Positions 35,276 through 57,248 of a stretch of DNA of 64,000 nt are shown here, one piece after another. Below the pieces are notes generated by a model. That model saw nothing but the letters and a program-made list of their open reading frames with translations, had not been told where the DNA came from and did not search any database. The number at the start of each line of letters is the position of its first letter. Within the stretch, counting starts at the first letter, position 1. The translations under genes and the position numbers were made by a program. This DNA is from an uncultured virus (IMG/VR IMGVR_UViG_3300032220_001209) (taxonomy: Duplodnaviria > Heunggongvirae > Uroviricota > Caudoviricetes): the IMG/VR virus record IMGVR_UViG_3300032220_001209; one strand, written 5' to 3'.

Positions 35276-35285
35276 GATTTAAATT

Positions 35286-35963: not shown

Positions 35964-36017
35964 ATGTGTACTTATTGCAATATCTTTTAAGACATTGATA
36001 TTATGATGTGTAAATTT

Positions 36018-37195: not shown

Positions 37196-37198
37196 ATA

Positions 37199-40542: not shown

Positions 40543-40543
40543 T

Positions 40544-40963
40544 TTATTTTAACCTCGCGGCAGGATTACCTGCATAAGTGCCGGATTCTGTAATATTTTT
40601 AGTAACAACAGAACCTGCTCCAATAACAACATCATCACAAATAGATATAGGTAGTATGGTTGAATTAGATCCAACATACACTTTATTACCTAACTTTGTT
40701 GGTGAAAAATCTTTAGATAGTTCTCTATCAACAAACTTATCATTAATAAACATAACACCGTGGCCAATAAAACAATCAGATCCTATTTTAGTATTTGAAC
40801 ATATAAAACTATGACTTTGAATCCTAGTTCGTTCCCCAATTGTTACATTGTTTTGTATTTCGACAAATGGACCCACAAACGCATTGTCTTGCAACGTGCA
40901 TCCATATAAATTTACAGGTTCAATAATCTTAACACCTGCCCCTTTAATAATATTATTTTCCAT
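40544..40963 (-). CDS. hexapeptide-repeat sugar N-acetyltransferase
   Basis: Left-handed beta-helix repeats; GHGVMFIND, GAGSVVTK, GNPAA. Confidence 0.88.
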   Translation of the reverse strand: MENNIIKGAGVKIIEPVNLYGCTLQDNAFVGPFVEIQNNVTIGERTRIQSHSFICSNTKIGSDCFIGHGVMFINDKFVDRELSKDFSPTKLGNKVYVGSNSTILPISICDDVVIGAGSVVTKNITESGTYAGNPAARLK

Positions 40964-40964
40964 C

Positions 40965-41615
40965 TTATACCTTTCTTAGTGATACATATGTTTCAGGATC
41001 GTGTCCTTGAAATTTTTTTAATTTAGCATTATCAAATTTAAAATTGTCCATATCGTTAATAATAACTGCTTGTCTATGATAGGCCATTTTGGGCGATCTA
41101 TCAGTTTCATAGAGACTGTAGATATTATATTGATCCTTTATTTCCCAAAGGTATCTATTCACCCCGGGTAAGTCCGAATCATCAAACACAATAACTCTAG
41201 AATTTTTTAATTGCTCATGATCCCATTTGACTGTTTCATAGCTGTGTCCTCCATCTATGTAAGCCCAATCTACTTTTGTTGGTTGTAAAGTGTCTTTGGT
41301 ATAACCTTTCACTAGATCAAAACTAATATTTGGATTTGAAGTTGACAGTTGAGTTAAATTATTAAAACATTCGTTAAAATTTCCACCGAGCATACCATTA
41401 TCCTCTTGAAGATGGAAATTGTCAGTTTCTAAATCGAAAACATCATAGCCTATCAAATGTAGTTTTTTTACCTTGGTTATTAAGTTGTCTGCAAAAAAGA
41501 TCATACTTCTTCCTTTGTGGACACCAGTTTCTAGGTATGTGCCGGTATCAGATTTTATATCTAAAGCTAGGCAGGCTGATGTTGCAGCACCTAGATAAGC
41601 GAACATTTTTCCCAT
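40965..41615 (-). CDS. class I SAM methyltransferase
   Basis: ETGVHKG, YIDGGHSYETV, FDD; paralog of the 32369 ORF. Confidence 0.75.
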   Translation of the reverse strand: MGKMFAYLGAATSACLALDIKSDTGTYLETGVHKGRSMIFFADNLITKVKKLHLIGYDVFDLETDNFHLQEDNGMLGGNFNECFNNLTQLSTSNPNISFDLVKGYTKDTLQPTKVDWAYIDGGHSYETVKWDHEQLKNSRVIVFDDSDLPGVNRYLWEIKDQYNIYSLYETDRSPKMAYHRQAVIINDMDNFKFDNAKLKKFQGHDPETYVSLRKV

Positions 41616-42410
41616 TTATTCTCTCATTCCATTGAACACTGTTTTTTTAAATTTAGAATTATCCTGATCAATTGACGATATTAAATTTAGATTTAAATCT
41701 AATTTTTCCATTAACCTTGCTAAAGCTCTAGTGTCTTTAGGTAAACACATTCCACCATATCCTCGTAGACCATCAGACACATCCAAGTACATGTCTACAG
41801 CTTTACCAGTTTTAATATATGAATTCTTTATAGTTGTATAATCACAATTTAATTTTTCGCATATTTCGTACATGATATTTGCAAAAGTTACTCTAAGACT
41901 AGCATAAACATTATTGTAGTATTTTAGTACCTCTGCTTCTGTTGGTGTTAAGTGTTCAGTATTCTCTGGAAGATTGCCATGTGCTTTAACTACTTTTCTA
42001 AAAACCCAAATATCAAAAGTTCCCACGGCTAATAATTTATGATTGTTTATAAAGTCGTCGGCTGCACATCGTTCTCTTAAAAATTCAGGAACAAAACAAA
42101 TTGCTAGATTTTTATGTTTCTCTATCATGCTTTGTGTGAAGCCGGGCACAGCCGTACTTCTTATAGCAATGATTCCTTTGTAACTATTATCATCCAATTC
42201 TTGTATAACTGATTCTAAAATATTAGTATCGCACTGTCCGTCAGCTGCACTGGGCGTTGGCACACATAGAAAATTAATTTCTGTTGATAACACGTCTCGT
42301 ATTGTCGTATCGAGTTTTATGTCATGCACTAGTACTTCATGACCTAGATGTTCGAATCCCTGTTTGTTTGCAGAACCAACTGCTCCTACTCCTATAATTC
42401 CAATTTTCAT
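41616..42410 (-). CDS. UDP-glucose/GDP-mannose dehydrogenase family protein (lacks the C-terminal domain)
   Basis: GVGAVG, CVPTP, RST..PG, PEFLRE, GYGGMCLPKD. Confidence 0.88.
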   Translation of the reverse strand: MKIGIIGVGAVGSANKQGFEHLGHEVLVHDIKLDTTIRDVLSTEINFLCVPTPSAADGQCDTNILESVIQELDDNSYKGIIAIRSTAVPGFTQSMIEKHKNLAICFVPEFLRERCAADDFINNHKLLAVGTFDIWVFRKVVKAHGNLPENTEHLTPTEAEVLKYYNNVYASLRVTFANIMYEICEKLNCDYTTIKNSYIKTGKAVDMYLDVSDGLRGYGGMCLPKDTRALARLMEKLDLNLNLISSIDQDNSKFKKTVFNGMRE

Positions 42411-43264
42411 AATAATGAGTCCACTGTAAGTTTCAATCCGTCTTTTAAATTAAACAGATACTCGTAGTTTGTTAATCTTAACATTTTAGAAGTATCGGGA
42501 CAACGTCTTTTTGCACTCCCAACAGGTCCTGACATTATTTCAAGTTTGTTGGGATCAACTCCCATAATGTCCATTATAATTCTTGCAACATCACCGATTG
42601 TTACTTCTTCTTGTTTGCCAACATTAACTATTTCGTTGTTAGCATGTTTAACCAAGTGATGAGTGATATTAACTGCATCTTGCACATAACAAAATGATCT
42701 AGTATCATCGCCTTTGAGATAGTATTCTCCTTTGGCTACACGTTCTACAAACTCTGATATGAAATGGTCTTTTTGTCCAGGACCGTATATGTTAAAATAT
42801 CGTATAACCAGCCAAGACAGTCCACTGTTTGCTACTAAGTTTTCACCAAGAGCTTTTGGTAAGCTGTAACTCCATCGAGGATTAGTTATATCTTTAAACA
42901 TCACAGGAACATTTTCGTCTGTGGGAACAGGATACAATCCGTCGTCTATGGCTCCATTGAAAATTTCACATGTGCTAGTGAATACAAATTTTGTATTAGT
43001 TTTGTTGTAACGTTCAATAAGATTAAATGTTGGAATGGTGTTATTAAAAGAAACTTCTGTAGGAATTTCATAAAATAATTTAGTTCCGTTGGTTGCTGCC
43101 ATGTGAATTACCACATCCACATCGGGTAGATTTTTTGTTATTGATTTATCGCAAAGATCCTCACCTAATATTTTATCAACTACGAAAACTTCGTTGTTTT
43201 TTTTAATTAGATTATGGTAATGGCTTCCTATAAAGCCTTTGTGACCAGTTAACAATAGTTTCAT
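42407..43264 (-). CDS. NAD-dependent epimerase/dehydratase (UDP-glucuronate decarboxylase-like)
   Basis: TGHKGFIG, STCE, RWSYSLPK, RYFNIYGP, TRSFCYV, RRCPD. Confidence 0.85.
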   Translation of the reverse strand: MKLLLTGHKGFIGSHYHNLIKKNNEVFVVDKILGEDLCDKSITKNLPDVDVVIHMAATNGTKLFYEIPTEVSFNNTIPTFNLIERYNKTNTKFVFTSTCEIFNGAIDDGLYPVPTDENVPVMFKDITNPRWSYSLPKALGENLVANSGLSWLVIRYFNIYGPGQKDHFISEFVERVAKGEYYLKGDDTRSFCYVQDAVNITHHLVKHANNEIVNVGKQEEVTIGDVARIIMDIMGVDPNKLEIMSGPVGSAKRRCPDTSKMLRLTNYEYLFNLKDGLKLTVDSLL

Positions 43265-43266
43265 TG

Positions 43267-44049
43267 TTATTTTATAATCCTTTGTTGTATCATTTTTTTT
43301 CTTACTTTCTGGCCAGCGTGATCCGATCGTTCTGCCTTGCCAGCTGCTCCTATCCAATGAGTAATATATTCATCTAAAAAAGAAATAGATATTGGCAAAC
43401 TCGTAGGAGGCAAATGCCCAGTGATATCGTGAAAATGTTCTTTACCGGTACGAACCATTGATTCTTCAAAAACTCCAGTATCAGACCAGTCATACAATTT
43501 AAAAGCTTCATTGGTTAAATAAATATTTTTTTGTATTTCAAAAAACTTTTTAGCAACGGGATGATCCAGATTATACACTATTATTCCGGTTTCTACATTC
43601 AGTCGATTGTATTTTGTTTTATTTGGTGATACCCTATCTATTCCAAAGTATCCGCAAAACTTTCCATTCAATGCACAAGTTATTACAGACTCGTCGAGTT
43701 GTTTTTTTATAAGCACATCGGAATCCATCCATACTAAAATGCCAGTGGGATCAGTTTCGTATGCTTCCCATTGAGCAAAAGACTTATGGCTAAATTTTTT
43801 CCATTCTCTGTAATATCCAGGTGGTTGCAAATCTCTAGGTATTGAACTGGGAATTTTTTCAGCTTCGGCAAACCATGAATACTTGTCTTTGGTTGGAATT
43901 GATTTGGTATACTTTATTCCCAACTCCGGAGTGTCGTGCAACCATAATTCCCAATCACTGGGAATAAATTTTTCCCAAAACTTTACGGTGTATTGTCCTG
44001 TGTAATCCCAATATTCTTGACTTAATGTTGTTAAAATTTTTATTTTCAT
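43267..44049 (-). CDS. GT-A glycosyltransferase (paralog of the 34436 ORF)
   Basis: KFSHKS, WMDSD, ETG, WSD. Confidence 0.65.
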   Translation of the reverse strand: MKIKILTTLSQEYWDYTGQYTVKFWEKFIPSDWELWLHDTPELGIKYTKSIPTKDKYSWFAEAEKIPSSIPRDLQPPGYYREWKKFSHKSFAQWEAYETDPTGILVWMDSDVLIKKQLDESVITCALNGKFCGYFGIDRVSPNKTKYNRLNVETGIIVYNLDHPVAKKFFEIQKNIYLTNEAFKLYDWSDTGVFEESMVRTGKEHFHDITGHLPPTSLPISISFLDEYITHWIGAAGKAERSDHAGQKVRKKMIQQRIIK

Positions 44050-44640
44050 TTATACGACCCTTATTTCTGCACTGATATGTTTTTTATGTTTGCTTAAAAT
44101 TTTTAATATTTCAATACTATTATCGTTGTAAAAGATTTCTTTAGTTTTTAAATGTAGCCTAATGTCTAAAAATATTCTTGTATTTTCATGCGAATGCTCC
44201 AATATCAAATCTTTATATGTGCTGGCTGGATAATGAAATCCACACGATAGCCAGGAAGTAATTACATCAAATTTTTTATCTTTTGGAATTGAAATATTAT
44301 TAACATCGATTAAATTATAATTTTTAGTTTCTTTAGCATCGAGTTGTTCTTTAAGCCAGGATATTGGATGATAAAATAAAAACTCATTAGGATTAACATG
44401 ATAGCCGTCTTCGCTAACTAGCTCTGATGTATTTGTATTCAAAGATGTGTCACCGTCTAACAACCATAACTCTGTTCCGTATTTGTTGTTAAACATTCTA
44501 GATTCCCATGCTAGTCCACACCCAATATCTAATATTGAGATCGGCGGATTTTTTAATTCGGTATCGAGCAGATCAAAATTTAATTTTTTTACTGCTTGAT
44601 ATTCCGGTGTACTCCACTCCCCCGATAACCATTTTGACAT
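44050..44640 (-). CDS. class I SAM methyltransferase
   Basis: ILDIGCG, FDVITS..SCGFHYP. Confidence 0.75.
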   Translation of the reverse strand: MSKWLSGEWSTPEYQAVKKLNFDLLDTELKNPPISILDIGCGLAWESRMFNNKYGTELWLLDGDTSLNTNTSELVSEDGYHVNPNEFLFYHPISWLKEQLDAKETKNYNLIDVNNISIPKDKKFDVITSWLSCGFHYPASTYKDLILEHSHENTRIFLDIRLHLKTKEIFYNDNSIEILKILSKHKKHISAEIRVV

Positions 44641-44643
44641 GCC

Positions 44644-44994
44644 TTATTTGCTCCCTATATATCCAACAGTTTCTCTTTTAATGTCGTCATGGTCAAATTC
44701 TGCCCAATATAGTTCAAAGGCCACTGTGTCTTCCACTGCCTCAAATTGATGATATTCACCGGGAGCAACTTTGGTATACTGACCCGCTGTCAATACCGTT
44801 TCGTCTATGAGATCATAATTGTTCTTCCACACTCGGATAATCATCTTGCCGGACTCCACAAAGAATCCGTTCCACTTGTATTTGTGAGTGTGTTTGGAAC
44901 ACGTGCCTCCGGCTTTGGCCTCAATGCGATGAAATTCCAGTACTCCATTGGCCTCCAGCAATTCTGTTTTGCCCCATACTTTTCCTGCTATCAT
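44644..44994 (-). CDS. cupin-domain protein
   Basis: KVWG, CSKHTH, PGEYHQF; SD AGGAG. Confidence 0.75.
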   Translation of the reverse strand: MIAGKVWGKTELLEANGVLEFHRIEAKAGGTCSKHTHKYKWNGFFVESGKMIIRVWKNNYDLIDETVLTAGQYTKVAPGEYHQFEAVEDTVAFELYWAEFDHDDIKRETVGYIGSK

Positions 44995-45045
44995 GATGTA
45001 TTCACTCCTGTTGATTTGGTATTAAATACTCACATATTTATCCAT

Positions 45046-45888
45046 ATGAAATTTGGTTTGTTTAAAAAACACGGTGCACTTAACAGTGCAGATATTTTCT
45101 ACTATGTGGCAGACGGTTTGCAACAGCTGGGTCACACTGTGACATATGACACTGTGGAAGACGTGGATGTGCCTGTGATATGGTCACTGTTGTGGCATGG
45201 TAGAATGCAAGGCAATCACGCCATCTATCAATCATTCAGAAGTCGTGGTAAGAATGTGCTGGTATTGGAAGTGGGCGGCATACAAAGAAATGTCACTTGG
45301 AAAGTGGCACTGAATGGCATCAATCGTGCTGCTGATTTTGGTTCAGGTGAGATGGATTCCGATAGACCCAACAAATTAAAATTAAAATTAAAACCTTGGC
45401 GCACTGATGGTGAACACATTTTAATTTGTGCTCAACACAATAAAAGTGAGCAGTGGCGAGATATGCCTACATTGGAACGTTGGTTGCACAACACCATAAT
45501 GGAAATCCGTAAACATTCCCAAAGACCCATTGTGATCAGACCGCATCCGCGTTGTCCCGTTAGAGACAATTTTAAAATGTTTGGTGATGTGAGTATCCAG
45601 AATCCTGTGCAATTGGACAACACCTATGACGATTTCAATTTGAATTTTCGAAATTGTTGGGCAGTGATCAGTTGGAGCAGTAATCCTGGACCACAAGCAG
45701 TGATTGCAGGCATACCAGCTTTTGTGGGCGCTGATAGTTTGGCTTATGATGTGGCCAATCATGATTTGGCAAACATTGAAACACCCCTCATGCCTGATCG
45801 TGAGAATTGGTTGGTGAATTATGCTCACACTGAGTGGACTGTGGATGAAATCAGATCTGGTATTCCGTTTAAACGCTTGACTTTCTAA
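45046..45888 (+). CDS. putative glycosyltransferase (paralog 5)
   Basis: GEHILICAQ, IRPHP, SSNP..AGIP, W..YA..EWT..E..G. Confidence 0.55.
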   Translation: MKFGLFKKHGALNSADIFYYVADGLQQLGHTVTYDTVEDVDVPVIWSLLWHGRMQGNHAIYQSFRSRGKNVLVLEVGGIQRNVTWKVALNGINRAADFGSGEMDSDRPNKLKLKLKPWRTDGEHILICAQHNKSEQWRDMPTLERWLHNTIMEIRKHSQRPIVIRPHPRCPVRDNFKMFGDVSIQNPVQLDNTYDDFNLNFRNCWAVISWSSNPGPQAVIAGIPAFVGADSLAYDVANHDLANIETPLMPDRENWLVNYAHTEWTVDEIRSGIPFKRLTF

Positions 45889-45905
45889 TATCTGCCGCAT
45901 ATAAT
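45877..45905 (+). promoter_or_regulatory. sigma70-type promoter
   Basis: TTGACT-17nt-TATAAT. Confidence 0.8.
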
Positions 45906-45911
45906 TAGCGT

Positions 45912-47213
45912 ATGCTAATTTCTGAAAAATTACCCATGATATACACAGTGGAAGACTGTCTGGAAATCATGACAGGTTACAGTGAAATTTTGGTATCTCC
46001 TCCCTTTGAGTTATTGGAGCGTGATAAAAAAATATTACAAAGTATTGCTTCCAAAACTTTTAAAGGTGTGGGTTTGACTGACAGACAATTGGCTGTGGTG
46101 AAAAAAATACTCTTATCCAATTACGCTTTACAATTTGCGGACAAAGGCATTGATCTGTTTAAATCTTTGGAACAATTGAGAGGTCCTTTGCGTGAGTTGG
46201 ATCGATCTACCTTTATAAAAATTAAAAAAGTCAGCGATGTACCTCAATTGAACGAAGTGATCAATCGCGGTAACTTTGGCAGTGAGCATAAAGTGATCAT
46301 TCTACGTTTTCCTTTTAATATGTCCTATGCACGTTTGGTGAACGATATAAAGAAAAAATTCAGCTATGACAGTAGATATCTTAACTACGATAATCATTAT
46401 CTTTTTCCTTATGAAGAAAAATATGTGTATCACCTGGTGCACAGTTTTCAAAGTAAAATTAAAGACATTGATCCTGAACTGATCACTGCGTATGACAAGA
46501 TCTGTAAAATCAAAGAGAATTCCAATCAATATATTCCTGGCATCTATGATTATGAGATACGCAATGTACCTAAAGAATTCGTAAACTTTTTACATCAAGA
46601 CATTGGTGTGCCCAGCAAAGAAAATTTGTATCTGTACAAAGATCGCTGCAAGGCGTTATCATTGGAACATTTGGATCAAACTGCTGTGCAGGAATCTTTG
46701 AAAAGCATAGACATCCTCAGTCAAAAGATTGCATCTAGGAACTCATTCATAGTGAATATCAACAGAGAAAAATGGACATTGGATCAGGTCATAAGATCCT
46801 TGCACACACTACATAGATTTCCTCTATTGGTAGTGTTGAACGAAAAAAACGCATTGGATGATTATCATGAAATATTTGTCAAATTAAGATTGTTATATCC
46901 TTCATCTGCACATGCTGTGATGTTTAGATTGCCCAATCAAGGTGTAAAAAATATTGAGTTCAATCAGCGTGTAACTGAAGATCGTACCAATAATTCGATT
47001 GATGAAAACACAAAAATAGTTTATATTAATCATAAACGTGTGCCCAAACCACTGATCAAATCCCGTTGGCAAGCTAGAGCTGTTATCAGTGTAAGAAGTG
47101 AAAGAGAACACAATCAAGTGCAGAATTTTCTTGAACCGTATGATCTGATCATACAGTATGACAGAGAAGAAAGTCCTTGGAACATGTGGCATCACGAAAT
47201 GGAAATCATATAA
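45912..47213 (+). CDS. hypothetical protein
   Basis: 433-aa ORF directly after the promoter, upstream of uvsW. Confidence 0.6.
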   Translation: MLISEKLPMIYTVEDCLEIMTGYSEILVSPPFELLERDKKILQSIASKTFKGVGLTDRQLAVVKKILLSNYALQFADKGIDLFKSLEQLRGPLRELDRSTFIKIKKVSDVPQLNEVINRGNFGSEHKVIILRFPFNMSYARLVNDIKKKFSYDSRYLNYDNHYLFPYEEKYVYHLVHSFQSKIKDIDPELITAYDKICKIKENSNQYIPGIYDYEIRNVPKEFVNFLHQDIGVPSKENLYLYKDRCKALSLEHLDQTAVQESLKSIDILSQKIASRNSFIVNINREKWTLDQVIRSLHTLHRFPLLVVLNEKNALDDYHEIFVKLRLLYPSSAHAVMFRLPNQGVKNIEFNQRVTEDRTNNSIDENTKIVYINHKRVPKPLIKSRWQARAVISVRSEREHNQVQNFLEPYDLIIQYDREESPWNMWHHEMEII

Positions 47214-47214
47214 T

Positions 47215-48672
47215 ATGAGCAGATGTAAAATTATAATCCAGGACGAAGTGAATGTAAAAATTGATGGACTAGATGTGGACATCAGAAGAAAGATTGCCAA
47301 CAAATTAAAATGGGCAGTGCCATATGCTAGATATCTACCACAATACAAATTAGGCAGATGGGATGGCAAAGTGGGATTCTTTGGATTGGGTGGCAATGGC
47401 TATGTGAACCATTTGGATGTGATCATACAATTGTTGAATGATTATGGCATAGAAATTGAAGAAATTGTTGATAACAGAAAAAAAGTAGATCTCAAGTTCA
47501 ACAAGATAGACAAGAACTTTTTTGGAGACAAGACTTGGCCCAAAGGACACATTATGGAAGGTCAAAAAATTGAATTGAGAGATTATCAAGTAGAGGTAGT
47601 GAATAATTTTTTAGAAAATCCACAATCATTGCAAGAAGTAGCCACTGGAGCAGGTAAGACCATTATCACTGCTTGTTTGTCCAAGTTGTGTGAACCATTT
47701 GGCAGAACCATAGTAGTGGTGCCCAACAAAGGATTGGTCACGCAAACAGAAGAAGATTATATCAATTGTGGATTGGATGTGGGAGTGTATTTCGGAGACA
47801 GAAAAGAACTGAATCACACACATACCATTTGTACTTGGCAATCATTGAATGTGTTGGATAAGAAAACCAAAGATGGTGATGCTGTGGTCACACTGGCTGA
47901 GTTTCTAGATGGAGTTAATACCATTATTATAGATGAAGTGCATCAAGCCAAAGCAGAAGTTTTAAAAAAACTGCTCACACACAATTTAAGAAATGCTGCC
48001 ATACGTTGGGGACTCACGGGTACTATTCCCAAAGAACAGTTTGAGTTTCAATCCATATTGGCCAGCATTGGTCCTGTGATCAATCAAATATCTGCCAAAG
48101 AGTTACAAGACAAAGGAGTACTGTCACAGTGTCATGTGAACGTGGTACAGCTGGTGGACACAGTGGTACATAGAAATTATCAAGAAGAATTAAAATATCT
48201 TATGACCCATGAACCACGTATGAAATTTTTATCCAAGATGTTGTTGAGAATCAAAGAATCCGGCAACACATTAATATTGGTGGATAGATTGGCAGCAGGT
48301 GAAATGTTACAAAAATTAATACCAGATTCAGTGTTCATACAAGGGGAAATGAAACTGGCTGAGCGTAAAGAGGAGTATGATCAGATATCCAATTCAACCA
48401 ATAAAGTTTTAATTGCCACCTATGGTGTGGCTTCTGTGGGGATCAATATCCCAAGAATCTTTAATCTAGTTTTAATTGAACCTGGCAAGAGCTTTGTGAG
48501 AGTGATACAGAGCATTGGCAGAGGCATCCGTAAGGCACAAGACAAAGACTTTGTACAGATTTGGGACATAACGTCCAGCTGTAAATTTGCCAAAAGGCAC
48601 TTAACCCAAAGGAAAAAGTTTTACAAAGAAGCAAACTATCCTTTCACAATGGAAAAAATGGAGTGGAATTAA
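47215..48672 (+). CDS. uvsW: SF2 DNA helicase
   Basis: LRDYQ, ATGAGKT, DEVH, GLTGT, QSIGRGIR. Confidence 0.9.
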   Translation: MSRCKIIIQDEVNVKIDGLDVDIRRKIANKLKWAVPYARYLPQYKLGRWDGKVGFFGLGGNGYVNHLDVIIQLLNDYGIEIEEIVDNRKKVDLKFNKIDKNFFGDKTWPKGHIMEGQKIELRDYQVEVVNNFLENPQSLQEVATGAGKTIITACLSKLCEPFGRTIVVVPNKGLVTQTEEDYINCGLDVGVYFGDRKELNHTHTICTWQSLNVLDKKTKDGDAVVTLAEFLDGVNTIIIDEVHQAKAEVLKKLLTHNLRNAAIRWGLTGTIPKEQFEFQSILASIGPVINQISAKELQDKGVLSQCHVNVVQLVDTVVHRNYQEELKYLMTHEPRMKFLSKMLLRIKESGNTLILVDRLAAGEMLQKLIPDSVFIQGEMKLAERKEEYDQISNSTNKVLIATYGVASVGINIPRIFNLVLIEPGKSFVRVIQSIGRGIRKAQDKDFVQIWDITSSCKFAKRHLTQRKKFYKEANYPFTMEKMEWN

Positions 48673-48676
48673 AATT

Positions 48677-49183
48677 ATGAGAATATTAACAGTGGATAAT
48701 AATACTTTCTTGCTATCCAAAATGCCTAATCAAATCACCGAAGACATCAGTTTCAGTGTGCTGGACAACAGCAATCCCAAAGAGCCTGATTTCTTTTTTA
48801 TGCCTTTGATTTTTATTGAAAGTTTTTCAAGCCCAGCCATAGTGTTGGAAATTGGAGGGCACGAAATCAGTATGCCTTTGGACTGGAGTGTGGCCGTGGG
48901 AGATTCAGAAAGCGGTTATGATCTACAGATCATTCCTCTGACCAGTCTCAGCGACAGAGGTTTCGAAGCATTCAGCCTTAATCCATTATCGGGATTCAGA
49001 CCTGAATTTTTAAATATCAATGTGATTAATTTTTACAATGATGTGAAATGGTACTTTCCCAAGGTTAAAAACAATCAATTGATCACAACTCCTTTGACTG
49101 ATTTGCCCAAATCCAAATGCGTATTTTTTATCAAAGACGTGAGTAGACAATGCGAAAGTATTGATCATTCGTTGTTATACTAA
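48677..49183 (+). CDS. hypothetical protein
   Basis: ORF tiling within the operon. Confidence 0.6.
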   Translation: MRILTVDNNTFLLSKMPNQITEDISFSVLDNSNPKEPDFFFMPLIFIESFSSPAIVLEIGGHEISMPLDWSVAVGDSESGYDLQIIPLTSLSDRGFEAFSLNPLSGFRPEFLNINVINFYNDVKWYFPKVKNNQLITTPLTDLPKSKCVFFIKDVSRQCESIDHSLLY

Positions 49184-49335
49184 TGACCAAAGTTAAAAAG
49201 AGAAAAACAAAAGAAATAGAAAAGGAAGAACCAATCATATTGTTGCCCAAACATGACGAAGAAGAGCAGCGAGATCTGTCATGGATGATACAAGATAATG
49301 ATATAAAAGAAGATAAAGATGGAAAAAAGATTTAG
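49183..49335 (+). CDS. small charged hypothetical protein (50 aa; not in ORF track)
   Basis: MTKVKKRKTKEIE...DGKKI*; TAATG-coupled and fills the gap. Confidence 0.5.
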   Translation: MTKVKKRKTKEIEKEEPIILLPKHDEEEQRDLSWMIQDNDIKEDKDGKKI

Positions 49336-49585
49336 ATATAAACCAGGAATAGCTTATTCACATGAATCCCCCGATGGCGGAGCCACTGTGTATGCTAGAG
49401 AAATTGGCAAACAAAACAGACATTTGGTTTACAGAAGTGAGGATTCTTTGATTGATGAAGAAAGTCAAATTAGAAGTCAATACATCACTCCTGACGCCGT
49501 CAAGTTGTGTAGGCAAAACAAAGGATTGCAAAAAGCATGGGAAAAGTATATAGTGCTATTGAGATTATCAGGATTCGATGACTAA
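49319..49585 (+). CDS. hypothetical protein
   Basis: ESPDGGATVYAR motif; operon tiling. Confidence 0.6.
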   Translation: MEKRFRYKPGIAYSHESPDGGATVYAREIGKQNRHLVYRSEDSLIDEESQIRSQYITPDAVKLCRQNKGLQKAWEKYIVLLRLSGFDD

Positions 49586-50048
49586 CAAATTACCATTAAA
49601 AGACATACTGGCAGCCATAGATATGAATGCCAAAAATGTTTGGGATGAGCTGTCTGATGATGAACAGAAACAGGTGAGTTTCTTTTTGTTGAACAGATAT
49701 GCCAGTGCCGTGAAAGGCAACAATACTCAAAAAGAATTGGCCATATTCAAAACCAACGAGTATTACAATAAAAACTTTTTCACCATACAAAAACACAAAA
49801 AGTTATTATGGTTTTTACTTTGCATGACAGCCAATGAAAAGAAAGAAATTAGATATCACGAATGGATAGGTTACAAACTCAAAGATGCTGGTGCTCAAAA
49901 CAAAGCAGTAAAGTTCTTAAAAGCATTATATCCCAACATGAAAGAAGATGAGATTGAAATGTTAGCCAAGATCAACAGCAAAGAAGAACTGAAAGAATTG
50001 GCTGAATCATATGGCATGGACAAAACAGAAATTAAAAAAACATTATGA
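49578..50048 (+). CDS. clamp-loader small subunit (gp62-like), putative
   Basis: ILAAID..K, FLLNRYAS, N..F, H..L.W; replication-gene context. Confidence 0.5.
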   Translation: MTNKLPLKDILAAIDMNAKNVWDELSDDEQKQVSFFLLNRYASAVKGNNTQKELAIFKTNEYYNKNFFTIQKHKKLLWFLLCMTANEKKEIRYHEWIGYKLKDAGAQNKAVKFLKALYPNMKEDEIEMLAKINSKEELKELAESYGMDKTEIKKTL

Positions 50049-50728
50049 TTGAACGACCTTATACATGTCAATACTGTGATACCAGTTATACCAAAGAAAA
50101 AACATTGGCAGTGCATCTGTGTGAACAGAAAAGAAGACATTTGCAAAAAGATGAACGCCGAGTTCAATTGGGTTACATGACATTTGTAAGATTCTATCAA
50201 ATATCTCAAAAATTAGATGGCACAAAAACATATGAAGAATTTTGTAAATCTCCTTACTACAACGCATTTGTTAAATTTGGATCATTTGTGTCCAATGTGA
50301 AACCATTGTATCCAGAAAATTATATTGATTATGTGATCAAGAGTGGAGTCAAATTGGATCATTGGTGTAGAGAAGAACTGTATGAAAAGTATGTGTTGGA
50401 ATTAATATTGAAAGAATCCATGGAACCTGCTGTGGAAAGGTCCATTAAAAATATGATGGATTGGGCTGACAATCACAGTGCTGATTGGAAAGACTATTTT
50501 AGATACGTGAGTTTGCCCCGAGCAGTGTATGATATCAAAGACGGCAAAATTTCTCCTTGGTTAATATTAAACAGTAACTCAGGCAAAGAAATGATGAGCA
50601 AATTTAGCAATGAACAACTGACCATGTTGTATCATGTGATAAACCCTGAGCATTGGTCACTTAAATTCAAAAGACATCCAGCAGATGTGGAAATGATCAA
50701 AGAAATAATCAAAGAAGCCAAACTTTAA
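50045..50728 (+). CDS. hypothetical protein with an N-terminal Zn finger
   Basis: YTCQYC...LAVHLC. Confidence 0.6.
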   Translation: MIERPYTCQYCDTSYTKEKTLAVHLCEQKRRHLQKDERRVQLGYMTFVRFYQISQKLDGTKTYEEFCKSPYYNAFVKFGSFVSNVKPLYPENYIDYVIKSGVKLDHWCREELYEKYVLELILKESMEPAVERSIKNMMDWADNHSADWKDYFRYVSLPRAVYDIKDGKISPWLILNSNSGKEMMSKFSNEQLTMLYHVINPEHWSLKFKRHPADVEMIKEIIKEAKL

Positions 50729-50914
50729 ATGAAATCAAAAAAAGTTGATTATAAATCAAAAAGATTTTGTCATGTGTGTAAAAAGATTACTCCACACGAG
50801 CCAGATGCCAGCACAGCTATCACTTATTACGGAAAAACTCCGCATGTTCCTTGGCAATGTACCATTTGTTATCCTACCTCTCTTGACAAACTGTACCCTA
50901 AGGAGTTAAAATAA
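50729..50914 (+). CDS. small Zn-ribbon protein
   Basis: CHVC...H...CTIC. Confidence 0.55.
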   Translation: MKSKKVDYKSKRFCHVCKKITPHEPDASTAITYYGKTPHVPWQCTICYPTSLDKLYPKELK

Positions 50915-50917
50915 ACT

Positions 50918-51481
50918 ATGCCCGATATTGATATAGACTTTGCTGATAGAACTGTAGTGTTGGAAAAATTCAAACACAGAGTTGCTAAATTGGAAACTGG
51001 TAAGAAACACAACACTGGAATTTACTTCACAGAAGTACCTCACAATCCTGTGGATAATATGTCCACGCTCAATTATGAAGAAGCTGAAAACAGAGGATAT
51101 TTTAAAATAGATTTTTTAAATGTAAACATTTATAAAAACATAAAGAATGAAGAACATTTGAAAGAACTAATGAATAAAGAACCCATTTGGGAATTATTAG
51201 AAGAAAAAGATTTTGTGGATCAATTGTTTCATGTGAATGGACATGTGGAAATTTTACAAAAATTAAAACCTAAAAATATAGAACAACTAGCAGCAGTGTT
51301 GGCTATTATAAGACCAGCCAAAAGATATCTGTTAAATAACAGTTGGAAAGAAATCATGGAACAAGTATGGGTTAAACCATCTGATGATTCTTATTTTTTT
51401 AAAAAATCTCATGCAACATCATACGCAGTAGCGGTGATAGTACACATGAATTTAATTTGTGAAAACTTGCATTCAGAATGA
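50918..51481 (+). CDS. miniature DNA polymerase III alpha (DnaE)-like catalytic core
   Basis: MPDIDIDF, KHNTG, FKIDFL, IIRP, FKKSHATSYA. Confidence 0.8.
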   Translation: MPDIDIDFADRTVVLEKFKHRVAKLETGKKHNTGIYFTEVPHNPVDNMSTLNYEEAENRGYFKIDFLNVNIYKNIKNEEHLKELMNKEPIWELLEEKDFVDQLFHVNGHVEILQKLKPKNIEQLAAVLAIIRPAKRYLLNNSWKEIMEQVWVKPSDDSYFFKKSHATSYAVAVIVHMNLICENLHSE

Positions 51482-51972
51482 AAACTAATAGATTAAATGT
51501 TCCTGTGACTATTCAATGGGAAGGAAAAACCAATAGAAAACATTTTTTAAAATATCTAATTGAAAAAAATAATTTTAAAACAATAGCTGAAGTGGGAGTA
51601 CGAGATGGTCGAACTACTTTTCATCTATTGGATCATATTCCAGATTTAACCATTTACGCTATTGATATGAGTATTAAAGAATTTTACAACAAAGAAGTTG
51701 CTGATCGATACAAGAATAGATTAATACCTATAGAAGCCATAAGTGAAGTAGCAGCAGACAGAATAGCTGATAACAGTTTGGATTTAGTTTTTATAGATGC
51801 TAATCATAGTTATGAATATGTTAAAAAAGATATTATTAAATACACTCCTAAACTTAAACAAAATGGTCTGTTGACTGGACATGACATTGATTATCCTGGT
51901 GTAAATCGAGCAGTGAATGAAATGATCGTGAACTATGATGTAGGACCTAATTATGTGTGGATTAAAAAATGA
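51478..51972 (+). CDS. class I SAM methyltransferase (Methyltransf_24-like)
   Basis: EVGVRDG, FIDANHSY, GHD. Confidence 0.8.
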   Translation: MKTNRLNVPVTIQWEGKTNRKHFLKYLIEKNNFKTIAEVGVRDGRTTFHLLDHIPDLTIYAIDMSIKEFYNKEVADRYKNRLIPIEAISEVAADRIADNSLDLVFIDANHSYEYVKKDIIKYTPKLKQNGLLTGHDIDYPGVNRAVNEMIVNYDVGPNYVWIKK

Positions 51973-52181
51973 AATATAAAAACCCTGTAAAACAAACTGA
52001 ATTTGTGAAACGTCCAAATGTGAAACAAACCGTTGAAAAAGTACGCTCACGAGATGTTAAATGTTTTGGAAACGATGAATGGGGAGGACATCCTACAGTG
52101 TTTTACAGCATAGACGAGACCAACGAAGTTACCTGCGGTTACTGCGATAAAAAATTTATATATGAGGGAGAAGATGCGTAA
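51969..52181 (+). CDS. zf-CHCC zinc-finger protein
   Basis: C.G...GGHPTVF...CGYC. Confidence 0.8.
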   Translation: MKYKNPVKQTEFVKRPNVKQTVEKVRSRDVKCFGNDEWGGHPTVFYSIDETNEVTCGYCDKKFIYEGEDA

Positions 52182-52446
52182 ACTGATTGATGGCACAGAA
52201 GCATCTGAATTGAACGAACCAATTTCGTTGATTATTAAAACAAAATGTCCCAAAAAATATTTACTGTTGGATCTTGAAACAGATGAAACCTATCGCGGCA
52301 CAGACAACAATCAACCAGGATCACACTGGACAAAAATAGACAACTCTTTTGTGAATGAATTTAAAAAATTAAATCCTAAGCCTGCTGCCACAGCAGTTAA
52401 TGTGCAAGAAATTTTAGATGCTGTGGATGCTTTGTTAAAACTTTAG
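52174..52446 (+). CDS. hypothetical protein
   Basis: TKCPKKY.L.DLET motif; overlaps the upstream stop codon. Confidence 0.55.
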   Translation: MRKLIDGTEASELNEPISLIIKTKCPKKYLLLDLETDETYRGTDNNQPGSHWTKIDNSFVNEFKKLNPKPAATAVNVQEILDAVDALLKL

Positions 52447-52814
52447 CTTTTGGGTTTTCTTACCCATTGCACTGATTTACGTTTGGTTCTTTTCACTGCT
52501 AGATTATAGAGATTTACTGTGGGACCTATCACTATTCTTACATCTTTGGTGTTCATCATCATCAAAATACCTTTGAAATATTCTATTTCTCTACGTAAGA
52601 AGATGCCTATGGGAATCATTCTATTGCTTTCCCACCACCATGATTCGCACAGATCCAAGAATTGTTTCTTTTCTTCGTCCGTGTGTATCTGAGTGTAAAT
52701 GTACATGCTGGTGATGTTATGATCTTGATTGTTGATTACGCCCACATATTCTTTGTCGCCATAGTTGACCACACTGATAAAAGGGAAGTTTTCTTCTATA
52801 TCTTTACGTAACAT
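52443..52814 (-). CDS. hypothetical protein
   Basis: WWWESNRMIPI motif; SD AGGA. Confidence 0.6.
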   Translation of the reverse strand: MLRKDIEENFPFISVVNYGDKEYVGVINNQDHNITSMYIYTQIHTDEEKKQFLDLCESWWWESNRMIPIGIFLRREIEYFKGILMMMNTKDVRIVIGPTVNLYNLAVKRTKRKSVQWVRKPKS

Positions 52815-52819
52815 TTTCC

Positions 52820-52827
52820 TATAAATA
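52820..52827 (+). promoter_or_regulatory. T4-type late promoter TATAAATA
   Basis: Perfect consensus upstream of the 52853 ORF. Confidence 0.7.
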
Positions 52828-52852
52828 CATCATAAATTGAGATTATACAACT

Positions 52853-53650
52853 ATGCAGCTAATTTACCGATATTTAGTAAATAACAAAGTGCTTCTGACA
52901 GTGGATCTGGCAGGAGAAATAACGGAGTATAAGTCAGTGTATCAAAGAAACATTAAAATTTACAGGGGCATAGACAATTTAATCACATTTCAGCTCAACA
53001 ATGCTGATCAGAAAGCTATCTCTATTGATACTGAGTACACTCCTACTTTTTACATGTATGATGAAAACAACACTTTAGTGGTGACCAAACAGGGCACTAT
53101 CATTGAAACCCAAGACAGTTCAGTGTACACCAACAAAGGTCAATTCACAATCACTCTAACAGAAAATGATCTATTAGATTTAAAATCACAATATCTCAGT
53201 TACAGTGTATGGTTGACCAACAATACAGACAACACCAGAACACTCACTTATGCCAATACTCATTTTGAAAACAAAGGCGTGATATTCCTAGACCATACAG
53301 CATTTCCAGGTCCTCTCAATTCTTATTCAGTCACCCAGTTCAGCGAAACAGGAGTGGGCACTGATATCTATGTGTCAGAAACTATTAGTGGACAACCTAG
53401 TATTAATGGCAACGCCGCATTGCACACTGCTGCCATATACAACAATGATTCCACAGCCACTCTCACAGTGCAGGGCACTTTGGACAACACAGTAACCAAC
53501 AGCACTGATTGGGCTGATATTACCACTGTGTCTCTCGCATCCACAGACGAAATCAAATATGCCAATTTCAATGGTGTGTTCAATCACATCAGATTCAAAT
53601 TTGATCCTACCAATTCTGGAACTATTTCAAAAATACTAGTACGCAATTAA
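52853..53650 (+). CDS. probable virion structural protein
   Basis: T/N-rich beta composition; late promoter upstream. Confidence 0.5.
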   Translation: MQLIYRYLVNNKVLLTVDLAGEITEYKSVYQRNIKIYRGIDNLITFQLNNADQKAISIDTEYTPTFYMYDENNTLVVTKQGTIIETQDSSVYTNKGQFTITLTENDLLDLKSQYLSYSVWLTNNTDNTRTLTYANTHFENKGVIFLDHTAFPGPLNSYSVTQFSETGVGTDIYVSETISGQPSINGNAALHTAAIYNNDSTATLTVQGTLDNTVTNSTDWADITTVSLASTDEIKYANFNGVFNHIRFKFDPTNSGTISKILVRN

Positions 53651-53685: not shown

Positions 53686-54690
53686 ATGAGTATTGTGTTT
53701 GATACAGTTGTTCAATATCTTCCGGCCAAAAGAAAACAGACTCCCAGCGGATGGTTGTCTTTCAATGCTCCTTGCTGTCAGCACAATGGCACCACAGCAG
53801 ACACTCGGAGTAGAGCAGGTCTGATACAGAACGCTGACCAAGGCTTGAGTTATCACTGTTTTAATTGTGGCTACAAAGCCAGTTGGGTAGCAGGAAGAAA
53901 TCTCACTTTCAAATTGAAACGTCTTATGCAGTGGTTGAACATGCCTGATGATGTGATCACAAAACTGGCACTAAATGTTCTACAACAGACAGATGAAAAA
54001 AGTATTCATAAAAATCTTTCACAATTTCCTAAATTTAAAACTGTGGAATTACCCAAACGTTCCAAAACAATCTTTGAATGGCACAAAGACTTTGAACAAC
54101 GCAATGTGGAACCAGATTCAAACTATATTAAAGTTTTAGAATACATCAACGGTAGAAATCTCAACATCAACGATTATGATTTTTATTGGACTCCTGAGAT
54201 GGGTTATAGAGATCGTATGATTGTGCCTTTTTATTATCAAGACAAGGTAGTAGGTTGGACTGCAAGAAAAATTGTGGATGACAAAGTAAAATATCTATCT
54301 GAACAGCAACCAGGATATGTGTTTAATTTAGACGCACAGGATGATGATAGATTATTTGTGATAGCAGTGGAAGGTCCTATTGATGCAATATTACTGGATG
54401 GTGTAGCGTTCTTAGGCAGCGAAGTAAAACAACAACAGAGTATGTTAATCAAAAGTTTAAATAAAAAAATTATTGTGGTACCAGATAGAGATTCAGCAGG
54501 TGAAAAGTTGATCTATGATGCTATGGATTTAGGATGGAGTGTGAGTATGCCTGAATGGGATCAGGATGTCAAAGACATCAATGATGCTGTTATTAAATAT
54601 GGTAGACTGCACACTTTATATTCAATAGTGAAGCATGCTGAAAATCAAGAACTAAAAATAAAACTGAGGATGAAAAAATGGCTGTCATAA
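53686..54690 (+). CDS. DNA primase (gp61-like)
   Basis: PCC..YHCFNC Zn finger; VEGPIDA, PDRD, KDIND TOPRIM motifs. Confidence 0.88.
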   Translation: MSIVFDTVVQYLPAKRKQTPSGWLSFNAPCCQHNGTTADTRSRAGLIQNADQGLSYHCFNCGYKASWVAGRNLTFKLKRLMQWLNMPDDVITKLALNVLQQTDEKSIHKNLSQFPKFKTVELPKRSKTIFEWHKDFEQRNVEPDSNYIKVLEYINGRNLNINDYDFYWTPEMGYRDRMIVPFYYQDKVVGWTARKIVDDKVKYLSEQQPGYVFNLDAQDDDRLFVIAVEGPIDAILLDGVAFLGSEVKQQQSMLIKSLNKKIIVVPDRDSAGEKLIYDAMDLGWSVSMPEWDQDVKDINDAVIKYGRLHTLYSIVKHAENQELKIKLRMKKWLS

Positions 54691-54801: not shown

Positions 54802-55797
54802 ATGATAATTTGGGGAATCACTGCTAACAATCACGATGCTAGTATTGCCGTTTTTGAATACAAAGTAGCAGGATTAACCAACAATAAAAAACTTAAATTA
54901 CTTTGGGCTGGTTTAACCAGAGATTTTTCTGATGTGCCCAATGATCCGGATCTTAATAGAAGAATCATTGAGTTTTTAAAAAATCAATTTGGCACTCCTA
55001 CAGAGATAGTATTTTATGAAAAACCTATTTTAAAAAGTTTAAGACAACTGTGGGCTGGTCAAGGATTCAAGTTTGGAGAAAACAATATTAAAAACTATTT
55101 GAAAAAATACGGTTTGAATGTGCCTATCAAATACACCAAACATCACGAAAGTCATGCTGCCTATGGATATTACACCAGCGGATTAAAAAATGCTGTGATC
55201 ATTGTGTTGGACAGTATAGGAGAATTTGAAACCATTAGTATTTGGTCTGGTTTGGGAAATAAAATTCAAAAAAGATATTCTCAATCATATCCTCACAGTG
55301 TGGGATTATTTTACAGTGCTATGGCACAACGATGTGGTTTTCAAGCCAATGCTGAAGAAAACAAATTGGAACAATTGGCCAAACAAGGAGATTGGAAAGT
55401 ATTATACAATTTGTTCAACGAAGAACTAATCAAAAACAGAATGCCGTTTGAAACTCACATTAATTTACATCGTGGATGTCGTTGGTGGAGACCAGAATTA
55501 AATTCTGAAAATGATATTGCTAATATTGCTGCTACCACCCAAAAAATATTTGAAGAAGTTATTTTGGAACATTGCAGTTGGGCTAGAATGTTTGTCCAAA
55601 GTAGAAATTTAATTTTGGTTGGTGGATGTGCTTTGAATCGAACGGCCACAGATAAAATCAAAAATTTATGGAACAGTTTTTGGGTGCCAAAAAATCCAGG
55701 TGATCCAGGATCATGTGTGGGTGCTGTGCTTGCCCGATATGAGAAACACATTGACTTTAATGAAAAATTATGGTATAATAAGAGTTGGAAATTTTAA
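54802..55797 (+). CDS. carbamoyltransferase (NodU/CmcH) N-terminal domain only
   Basis: HDAS, HHESHAA..YYTS, DSIGE, SVGLFY, GGCALN, PGDPG. Confidence 0.85.
   Translation: MIIWGITANNHDASIAVFEYKVAGLTNNKKLKLLWAGLTRDFSDVPNDPDLNRRIIEFLKNQFGTPTEIVFYEKPILKSLRQLWAGQGFKFGENNIKNYLKKYGLNVPIKYTKHHESHAAYGYYTSGLKNAVIIVLDSIGEFETISIWSGLGNKIQKRYSQSYPHSVGLFYSAMAQRCGFQANAEENKLEQLAKQGDWKVLYNLFNEELIKNRMPFETHINLHRGCRWWRPELNSENDIANIAATTQKIFEEVILEHCSWARMFVQSRNLILVGGCALNRTATDKIKNLWNSFWVPKNPGDPGSCVGAVLARYEKHIDFNEKLWYNKSWKF
55751..55779 (+). promoter_or_regulatory. sigma70-type promoter
   Basis: TTGACT-17nt-TATAAT upstream of the helicase. Confidence 0.75.
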
Positions 55798-55799
55798 AT

Positions 55800-57248
55800 A
55801 TGCCTGACGATATTAAACAAAACACAGACTATGGATATGATATACAGAAAGTATATCTAGAAATGATGCTGAGTGATGCACAAACATTTGTGCGTTGTCA
55901 AAACATATTTGATCACACTCTGTTTGATCGCAGACTTCAAACAGCAGCAGAATTCATTTACAATTATGTGAGCAAGTATAATGCATTGCCCACAGAAGAA
56001 ATGGTAAATTCCAGTTGCAAAACTGAATTAAAAGTTCCCAGCAATCTTAATGAACAACACTTTGATTGGTTGTTGGATGATTTTGAAACATTTATTAGAC
56101 ACAAAGGATTAGAACGTGCTATATTAAAATCAGCAGACATGTTGGAAAAAGGTGAATATGGTCCTGTGGAGGATTTGGTTAAGAAAGCAGTGCAAGTAGG
56201 ATTGAACAAAGACTTAGGAATCAACTATTGGGAAGATCCCAAAGGTAGATTAAAATCACTCAAAGATAACAATGGTCAGGTCAGCACTGGTTGGAAAACA
56301 TTGGATAAGAAATTGTTTGGTGGATTCAACAGAGGTGAGTTGAATATATTTGCTGGAGGATCAGGAGCAGGTAAATCTTTATTCTTAGCCAACCTAGGTT
56401 GTAACTGGGCATTGTCTGGATTGAATGTGCTGTATTTAACTTTTGAATTGGGAGAAGGATTGGTAGCAATGAGATTGGACAGTATGATGACCAATATACC
56501 TTCTAGAGAAATTTTTAAAGATTTGGATGGTGTGGAAATGAAAGTTAAATTGTTAGGTAAAAAGTCTGGCAGTTTTCAAATCAAATACATGTCTAGTGGT
56601 AAGAATGCCAACGATATTAGAAGTTATATCAAAGAATTTGAAATTAAAAACAATAAAAAATTTGATGTGATATTGGTGGATTATTTGGATCTTATGATGC
56701 CAATCAGTAGAAAAGTTAGCCCCAGTGATTTGTTTGTTAAAGATAAATTTGTATCGGAAGAATTGAGAAATTTGTCCATGGACTTACAAACTATATTTGT
56801 AACAGCTTCTCAATTGAACAGAGGTGCTGTGGAAGAGATTGAATTTGATCATTCACACATAGCTGGTGGATTATCCAAAATACAAACAGCAGACAATGTG
56901 TTTGGTATATTCACATCCAGAGCAATGAGAGAACGTGGTAGATATCAAATACAATTGATGAAAACTAGATCATCCAGCGGTGTAGGTCAAAAGATTGATT
57001 TAGAATTTGATCTTGATTCTTTAAGAATTAGAGACTTGCCAGAAGACGAAGAATATAAAGAATTTGACAATAGAAAATCCAAAATATTTGACACATTAAA
57101 AAAGACCAGCACAGTGACAGATGAAATTCAATCTGAATCAATGCCTGTAGATCCCACACAAGGAGTTAATATCACTAAAACCAAAGTGGAAGCAGACTCT
57201 ACCAAACTGAGACAATTTCTAAATAATTTAGGACAAGACAAAGAATAA
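55800..57248 (+). CDS. replicative DnaB-like helicase (gp41-like)
   Basis: STGW, GGSGAGKS, VDYLDL, TASQLNR, KTR. Confidence 0.92.
   Translation: MPDDIKQNTDYGYDIQKVYLEMMLSDAQTFVRCQNIFDHTLFDRRLQTAAEFIYNYVSKYNALPTEEMVNSSCKTELKVPSNLNEQHFDWLLDDFETFIRHKGLERAILKSADMLEKGEYGPVEDLVKKAVQVGLNKDLGINYWEDPKGRLKSLKDNNGQVSTGWKTLDKKLFGGFNRGELNIFAGGSGAGKSLFLANLGCNWALSGLNVLYLTFELGEGLVAMRLDSMMTNIPSREIFKDLDGVEMKVKLLGKKSGSFQIKYMSSGKNANDIRSYIKEFEIKNNKKFDVILVDYLDLMMPISRKVSPSDLFVKDKFVSEELRNLSMDLQTIFVTASQLNRGAVEEIEFDHSHIAGGLSKIQTADNVFGIFTSRAMRERGRYQIQLMKTRSSSGVGQKIDLEFDLDSLRIRDLPEDEEYKEFDNRKSKIFDTLKKTSTVTDEIQSESMPVDPTQGVNITKTKVEADSTKLRQFLNNLGQDKE

Follow-up and report, generated by a model that had tools for sequence, protein, structure and literature searches.

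A probable C-terminal unit of a split minimal DNA polymerase III alpha encoded by an uncultured T4-like giant phage

The gene at 50918-51481 and its family

The 64,000-nucleotide stretch of DNA analysed here (the window; IMG/VR virus record IMGVR_UViG_3300032220_001209, an uncultured member of the Caudoviricetes) has a GC content of 38% and is probably a piece of the genome of a T4-like giant myovirus, encoding a tail sheath, a tail tube, TerL, a gp32-like single-stranded DNA-binding protein, UvsX, UvsY, a UvsW-like helicase, a primase and a DnaB-like helicase. Between the genes of the UvsW-like helicase and the primase lies an open reading frame (ORF) of 187 codons (Table 1), the product of which is very probably the C-terminal unit (C-unit) of a split, minimal version of the alpha subunit of DNA polymerase III (Pol III alpha), consisting of the second half of a Pol-beta-like palm together with cut-down fingers.

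The translated ORF contains, in this order, D3/D5/D7, H31..G34, K63-I-D65-F-L, R132-P133 and F161-K-K-S-H165..Y169, the Pol III alpha motifs that a first reading of the letters (the original prediction) had recognized in an intact frame of this length. The likeness is far above chance, as the product matches the PHROG family phrog_11778 ('DNA polymerase') with E 4.5e-63, residues 3-184 falling on positions 8-195 of the 197-position profile. In a Pfam search it gave a sub-threshold match to DNA_pol3_finger (PF17657; 18.2 bits against a cut-off of 22, E 0.0017), and PF07733 (DNA_pol3_alpha) was not reported.

Table 1. Features of the window. Fractions are the numbers of loci with a homologue among the best 80 related viral loci (at least 65% identical, 6-kb flank).
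Feature	Position	Strand	Details
Virion structural protein, 2150 aa	920-7372	+	phrog_5838, E 2.8e-229
Promoter-like site TTGACT-17-TATAAT	45877..45905	+	11/12 matches; in the gap before gene 45912
UvsW-like superfamily-2 DNA helicase	47158..48672	+	ResIII E 5.8e-19; Helicase_C E 2.9e-9; phrog_16 E 6.3e-80
phrog_11758 ORF, upstream neighbour	49578..50048	+	78/80
phrog_11058 ORF, upstream neighbour, 227 aa	50045..50728	+	E 2.8e-64; 79/80, same strand
Zinc-ribbon-like ORF, 61 aa	50729		2/80
Sigma-70-like hexamers TTGACA-18-TAAAAT	50883..50912	+	11/12 matches; probably not functional for the C-unit gene
Putative Shine-Dalgarno AAGGAG	50901..50906	+	read directly; 11 nt 5' of the ATG
C-unit ORF	50918..51481	+	187 codons; ATG start; intact; begins MPDIDIDF
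D3-I4-D5 codons, metal-binding DxD strand	50924..50932	+	E. coli D401, D403
K63-I64-D65 codons, third catalytic carboxylate	51104..51112	+	E. coli K553, D555 (HMMER, hhalign)
R132-P133 codons, fingers motif	51311..51316	+	E. coli R639-P640
K162-K163-S164-H165 codons, fingers motif	51401..51412	+	E. coli N757-K758-S759-H760
Methyltransferase	51478		6/80
Downstream neighbour, 123 aa	52443..52814	-	78/80, always minus relative to the C-unit gene; same in PA5oct and Phosso
phrog_14467 ORF, 265 aa	52853..53650	+	75/80
DnaG-type DNA primase	53686..54690	+	phrog_47, E 7.5e-36; downstream in 71/80
Nol-like carbamoyltransferase	54802..55797	+	phrog_1601, E 4.2e-31; 54/80
DnaB-like replicative helicase	55800..57248	+	phrog_19, E 4.6e-72; 55/80, count limited by the 6-kb flank

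A tblastn comparison with 50,697 phage records returned 96 matching records, all of which (96/96) cover at least 80% of the query at less than 60% identity; those listed are jumbo phages of 284-490 kb (the PA5oct group, Phosso, Atu_ph07, 121Q/PBECO4-like phages, SCTP-2 and Xanthomonas phages) and one unannotated 94-kb record. At least 8000 candidates score at E <= 0.001 in a collection of 5.8 billion proteins, the best 120 of them being 183-205 aa long, and an exhaustive HMMER scan of clusters formed at 50% identity gave 431, 274 and 76 at E <= 0.001, 1e-10 and 1e-30 respectively. The family is very abundant in environmental phage records, and freshwater and marine metagenomes hold many close relatives of the window phage. 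Close copies of the stretch itself came, among the runs listed, mainly from freshwater and lake metagenomes of several studies, and a contig of the subsurface metagenome X2 spans 49514-51591, that is the whole ORF, with 22 differing letters. Relatives longer than 328 aa number only two among 1032 candidates, both of them odd joins on contigs of 2-2.8 kb. These two proteins (P0123 and P0124) combine a partial C-unit with either the C-terminus of a UvsW-like helicase or an unrelated N-terminus; considered as genuine fused or full-length forms they were set aside, as they are probably chimeras of assembly or gene calling, although this is not proven.

Conservation was assessed on an alignment of the window protein with 78 others, three of them from the search that gave the 8000 candidates and 75 being near-full-length sequences (179-219 aa) among 150 cluster representatives listed; fragments and a 375-aa protein, P0249, to which we return below, were left out. 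Five residues (D3, D5, K63, D65 and P133) are invariant in all 79 sequences, and a further twelve (D7, H31, G34, W91, P118, A125, I131, R132, K135, K162, H165 and A170) are conserved in at least 90% of them. The three aspartates that the original prediction took to be catalytic are therefore among the invariant residues. Against 13 relatives hand-picked from the 80 related loci, the ratio of nonsynonymous to synonymous substitution rates (dN/dS, Nei-Gojobori) of the window gene is 0.061-0.147 in ten pairs, the other three being saturated at silent sites. The gene is under strong purifying selection and its length is fixed.

These observations bear on the possibility that the ORF is what remains of a full-length dnaE, of phage or host origin, after decay or a recent truncation. 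Other phages do carry full-length DnaE genes, and Pfam gives the product nothing beyond the weak fingers match, but the narrow length range of the best 120 relatives, the near-full coverage in every matching phage record, the dN/dS of 0.06-0.15 and the two odd joins as the only longer candidates all contradict decay. So does the window, in the six frames of which a hidden Markov model (HMM) of the C-unit matches this ORF only (E 2.1e-82) and finds no flanking DnaE remnants. We regard decay as practically discarded. The finding that would have refuted the original prediction, homologues of full length beside a newly truncated gene here, is not what the family shows, and the proposal that this is a streamlined C-family core has held up.

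Likeness to the core of Pol III alpha

When the single sequence of the ORF product was searched against the PDB, only spurious matches to designed propellers were returned (E 0.013), so that a family profile was needed for the comparison with solved structures. The profile finds E. coli Pol III alpha (2hnh) with E 2.2e-5, as well as the Thermus and Mycobacterium enzymes, and its alignment pairs K-I-D with V-K553-F-D555 of the E. coli enzyme, R-P with R639-P640 and K-K-S-H with N757-K758-S759-H760, the same pairs being given by hhalign; the E. coli residue numbers were verified on translated dnaE. We take D401, D403 and D555 to be the catalytic carboxylates of the E. coli enzyme.

An AlphaFold2 model of the product, built on the 79-sequence alignment, has a mean predicted local distance difference test score (pLDDT) of 96.9 and a predicted template modelling score (pTM) of 0.89. 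The best 15 Foldseek matches to this model in the PDB are all C-family polymerases, headed by 4iqj_A at E 1.2e-4. With VIA-align it gave Z 9.9 for the Thermus aquaticus alpha subunit 3e0d_A (root mean square deviation (rmsd) 3.4 Å, 185 residues aligned, chain residues 461-841), Z 9.7 for Geobacillus PolC 3f2b_A (3.5 Å, 185 aligned, chain residues 971-1299) and Z 9.1 for E. coli 2hnh (4.1 Å, 181 aligned, chain residues 400-781), the first unrelated structure following at Z 4.3 (3.5 Å, 65 aligned). The comparison of a model with the DnaE palm, which the original prediction had proposed, thus places the product on residues 400-781 of Pol III alpha, and on E. coli structures the model begins at chain residue 400 or 401.

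The 187 residues stand for a span of about 381 residues in the cellular enzymes, of which about 195 have been deleted. From the DxD strand to the third aspartate there are 60 residues in the C-unit and 152 in E. coli, where on the domain names and boundaries that we assume for Pol III alpha this stretch presumably holds the thumb; from RP to KSH there are 29 against 118. No PHP, clamp-binding or OB region was found in the product by the Pfam search or within the structural span, as had been predicted. To these absences must be added one that had not been foreseen, since the GRGS nucleotide-binding motif is also missing and the ORF starts after the position of this element (residues 361-364 in E. 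coli).

The GRGS half of the palm

A split minimal Pol III alpha has been described, from sequence, for the T4-like jumbo phages of group 2.2 by Iyer et al. (2021; Viruses 13:63, PMC7824862). Phosso has an N-terminal unit (N-unit) in a 177-aa ORF at 97210-97743, which matches PF07733 at profile positions 21-96 (E 7.9e-13) and the C-terminal part of which reads ...VGRGSSVASY...FDEFLN; its C-unit, at 321328-321903 and thus 224 kb away, starts at the DIDIDF motif. The 237-kb record G001, which carries a C-unit 69% identical to that of the window, has an N-unit in a 185-aa ORF (L087:1174-1728), and here the N-unit covers positions 20-95 of PF07733 (E 2.0e-10) and the C-unit positions 96-196, the two genes being 122 kb apart. 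The corresponding distances are about 43 kb in PA5oct and about 31 kb in PBECO4. Projected on E. coli Pol III alpha, the split falls between about N393, where the N-unit stops, and about M399, the first position of the C-unit. The N-unit family is as large as that of the C-unit: of 8000 scored candidates at least 7993 reach E <= 0.001, and its best 120 members are, with three exceptions (156-183 aa), 182-187 aa long; N-units are present in the same cultured phages as C-units. To judge from these relatives, the ORF product is only half of a catalytic core, the GRGS half of the palm being carried by a separate protein of about 185 aa. The original prediction had also considered the product as a possible subunit of a complex with neighbouring proteins; a partner does appear to be involved, but it is not one of the neighbours encoded at 50045 or 45912. 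Searches of the whole window gave no N-unit homologue, and in the relatives the N-unit gene lies 31-224 kb away.

The two halves also occur as a natural fusion. P0249, the only such protein among the 150 cluster representatives listed, aligns with the N-unit over residues 15-180 (31% identity, E 9e-23) and with the window protein over residues 189-370 (30% identity, E 2e-33), leaving a linker of about 8 residues. Both the split point and this fusion speak against a split intein that would join the halves post-translationally, in the way in which the two parts of the split cyanobacterial DnaE are rejoined. Split DnaE genes rejoined by trans-splicing are thus known, but in the phages the termini of the two units abut at positions 95/96 of PF07733 with no extra sequence for intein halves, the fused form has a linker of only about 8 residues, and the C-unit starts with M-P-D, whereas intein splicing needs Cys, Ser or Thr at +1. 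This explanation, too, is already contradicted and we give it virtually no credence.

Whether the halves would bind was approached by co-folding the window protein (alignment A1) with the N-unit of G001 (alignment A2) alongside three controls. The N-unit of G001 served as a stand-in because no closer relative with both halves was found: an exact 40-mer search of viral contigs led only to contigs of 5-7 kb, and a metagenome scan to sequences of at most 71% identity. A search of three further records (G002, G003 and G005) with PF07733 gave no match, a result that is uninformative because these records are 26-73% complete and their known C-units were missed as well. A joint alignment of the fusion with both unit families (A3) was not used, MAFFT having stacked the N-units on the C-half. 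The co-fold scored 0.91 and the best control 0.00, with runs agreeing in at least 97% of contacts and a partner pLDDT of at least 87; 116 of 157 solved complexes attain the mark applied, compared with two of 215 mismatched pairs. In the predicted complex, residues 2-9 of the C-unit, which form the DxD strand, pair with residues 148-152 of the N-unit, the strand just before GRGS, and the KKSH motif is in contact with residues 159 and 176-178 of the N-unit. This modelled geometry is what one would expect of the palm of a Pol-beta-like nucleotidyltransferase. Folded alone, from 30 sequences of 71-93% identity, the G001 N-unit has a pLDDT of 57.7 and falls below 50 in the GRGS region (residues 149-185), while co-folded with the C-unit it rises to 87-90; this may hint at folding on the partner, but the methods and the alignment depths differ between the two predictions.

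The arrangement of the units can be set against the idea, contained in the original prediction, of a self-sufficient miniature C-family nucleotidyltransferase, a 187-residue enzyme that would need no partner to bind metals, nucleotide and DNA and would be active in priming, extension or end processing. The C-unit chain does carry all three carboxylates as well as the fingers motifs, and it is also modelled with high confidence by itself. Yet the GRGS element for triphosphate binding and the palm strand next to it are on a separate conserved protein, the C-unit starts exactly at position 96 of PF07733, where the N-unit stops, P0249 joins both units naturally, and the co-fold separates the pair clearly from its controls, so that we consider a single-chain enzyme very unlikely.

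The reading that we prefer, to which we assign a probability of roughly 85%, is that the ORF product is the C-terminal unit of a split minimal Pol III alpha and combines with a distantly encoded N-unit in one templated polymerase that is auxiliary to a family B replicase. In this proposal the C-unit would give the DxD strand (D3 and D5), the strand of the third aspartate (K63/D65) and the shortened fingers (R132-P133 and K162-H165), elements that would bind metal ions, the incoming nucleotide and the template, while the N-unit would supply a strand-GRGS-helix element that binds the nucleotide triphosphate. The two would assemble non-covalently, the strand preceding GRGS pairing with the DxD strand, to build one active site of the Pol-beta fold. 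The assembled enzyme would carry out templated DNA synthesis beside the family B replicase without a proofreading PHP domain, thumb, clamp-binding or OB domain; since it has no proofreading, thumb or clamp contacts it would probably be distributive and auxiliary, with a part in the filling of gaps, in repair or in a single step of lagging-strand synthesis. An auxiliary role of this kind is also suggested by Iyer et al. (2021; PMC7824862). A family B polymerase was identified in G001 (an 892-aa frame, E 8.1e-33) and in Phosso, and none in the 64-kb window.

A more specific proposal, drawn by analogy, is that no functional C-family polymerase is smaller than the two-piece enzyme and that it performs primase-coupled primer extension at the fork, handing short DNA on to the family B replicase, much as B. 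subtilis DnaE hands over to PolC and as eukaryotic Pol alpha does in a similar way. This would explain the fixed place of the gene beside those of primase and DnaB and the loss of the thumb, clamp-binding and proofreading parts, although we rate it as unlikely. Quite unlikely, in our view, is a complex that is real but not a templated polymerase, acting instead as a terminal transferase, as a maker of a nucleotide signal or as a non-catalytic scaffold of the replisome. The absence of the thumb, clamp-binding, OB and proofreading domains would fit such a function, as would the possession of a family B replicase by these phages and the lack of any assay among the literature covered; but the residues matching the fingers motifs of cellular Pol III alpha are conserved, the invariance of the carboxylates speaks against a purely structural role, and the gene lies within a replication module of primase, DnaB and UvsW in most relatives.

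Several points count against the preferred reading of a split auxiliary polymerase. No N-unit was found in the 64-kb window by a six-frame motif search, by tblastn with the Phosso N-unit (best E 0.88) or by an HMM of 30 N-units on the six frames (best E 0.34), so that for the window phage the partnership would follow from relatives of at most 69% identity. Neither a family B polymerase nor an N-unit was found in G002, which is 73% complete, although this negative is weak given that the Pfam search also missed the known C-unit of that record. The N-unit in the co-fold is from another phage, and split halves may pass such a test through their likeness to solved single-chain Pol III alpha; as a prediction the co-fold demonstrates that likeness and not binding. 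The C-unit is confidently folded alone (pLDDT 96.9), so that it might have a stand-alone role, and the product is below Pfam's own thresholds. In the literature, covered mostly at the level of abstracts and including PMC7824862 and PMC6892783, we found no polymerase assay of any member of the family. Finally, one true RNA run gave a single 237-nt contig, at 52015-52251, and none over the ORF, which is silent on transcription either way.

Genomic context and known systems

Homologues of the window genes at 49578, 50045, 52443 and 52853 and of the primase and DnaB-like helicase genes keep their order and orientation across the 80 related loci, and the same order is found in PA5oct and Phosso. 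The products of the two upstream ORFs at 49578-50048 and 50045-50728 may be accessory factors of either the mini polymerase or the replisome; the second has a weak C2H2 zinc-finger-like motif at its N-terminus (zf-C2H2, E 0.0086, below the cut-off), and an Atlas search with it returned only unnamed viral clusters. Downstream, the genes at 52443-52814 (-) and 52853-53650 (+) form a conserved divergent pair between the C-unit and primase genes. The 265-aa product of the latter resembles a virion structural protein and its PA5oct homologue has been detected by mass spectrometry, which makes it an odd neighbour within a replication module; the Nol-like carbamoyltransferase gene stands between those of the primase and the DnaB-like helicase. 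Elsewhere in the window, about 15 minus-strand genes in a run at 33642-44994, including methyltransferase-like and cupin-like products (by eye), and sugar-nucleotide enzymes at 7341-9896 (an epimerase, a heptose kinase/adenylyltransferase and a cysteine-dioxygenase-like protein) may together constitute a glycan or modification cluster.

The C-unit gene had also been credited with a promoter of its own. The hexamers at 50883-50912 are present, but sites as good as these occur at chance level across 44600-53000 (35, compared with 32.1 +/- 6.2 in shuffled sequences), and the position is an implausible one: the site overlaps the Shine-Dalgarno sequence as well as the codon at which the upstream ORF stops, and as its -10 hexamer ends 5 nt before the ATG, a transcript starting from it would be without a ribosome-binding site. 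The promoter-like site at 45877-45905 is better placed. The plus-strand genes from 45912 to 52446, among which is the C-unit gene, are tightly packed or overlapping, and co-transcription within this block, presumably as an operon, is the more likely mode of expression.

If the enzyme is active, about 370 residues in two chains would constitute a minimal core of a C-family polymerase. It would then be relevant to the question of why T4-like giant phages have retained another polymerase next to their family B replicase, and to the evolution of Pol III alpha, whether by reduction or from an ancestral minimal form, the latter being suggested by Iyer et al. (2021; PMC7824862). Bench work should be eased by knowing exactly where the core is split, between the residues corresponding to E. 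coli N393 and M399, and by the natural 375-aa fusion.

The window ORF adds little by itself to what is known, as both the family and its split architecture were already published in 2021 (PMC7824862). With the C-units of that family, such as PA5oct PQE65_gp264 and Phosso XYS97594.1, it shares its length, its start at the DxD strand, the invariant residues, apparently the kind of T4-like jumbo phage in which it is found, and the module order of UvsW-like helicase, C-unit, primase and DnaB. It differs in being only 37-50% identical to the members from cultured phages, and in that its locus has downstream insertions of a methyltransferase gene and small ORFs. It resembles the cellular DnaE and PolC enzymes (2hnh, 3e0d and 3f2b) in its three-carboxylate palm of the Pol-beta type, its K-x-D strand and the fingers motifs RP and KSH. 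Unlike these enzymes, it is without the thumb, about half of the fingers and the PHP, beta-clamp-binding, OB and tau-binding parts, and the phage core is split over two genes. Cyanobacterial DnaE likewise provides a C-family polymerase from two distant genes, although the phage pair has no intein halves and is split at a different site, and its assembly is presumably non-covalent.

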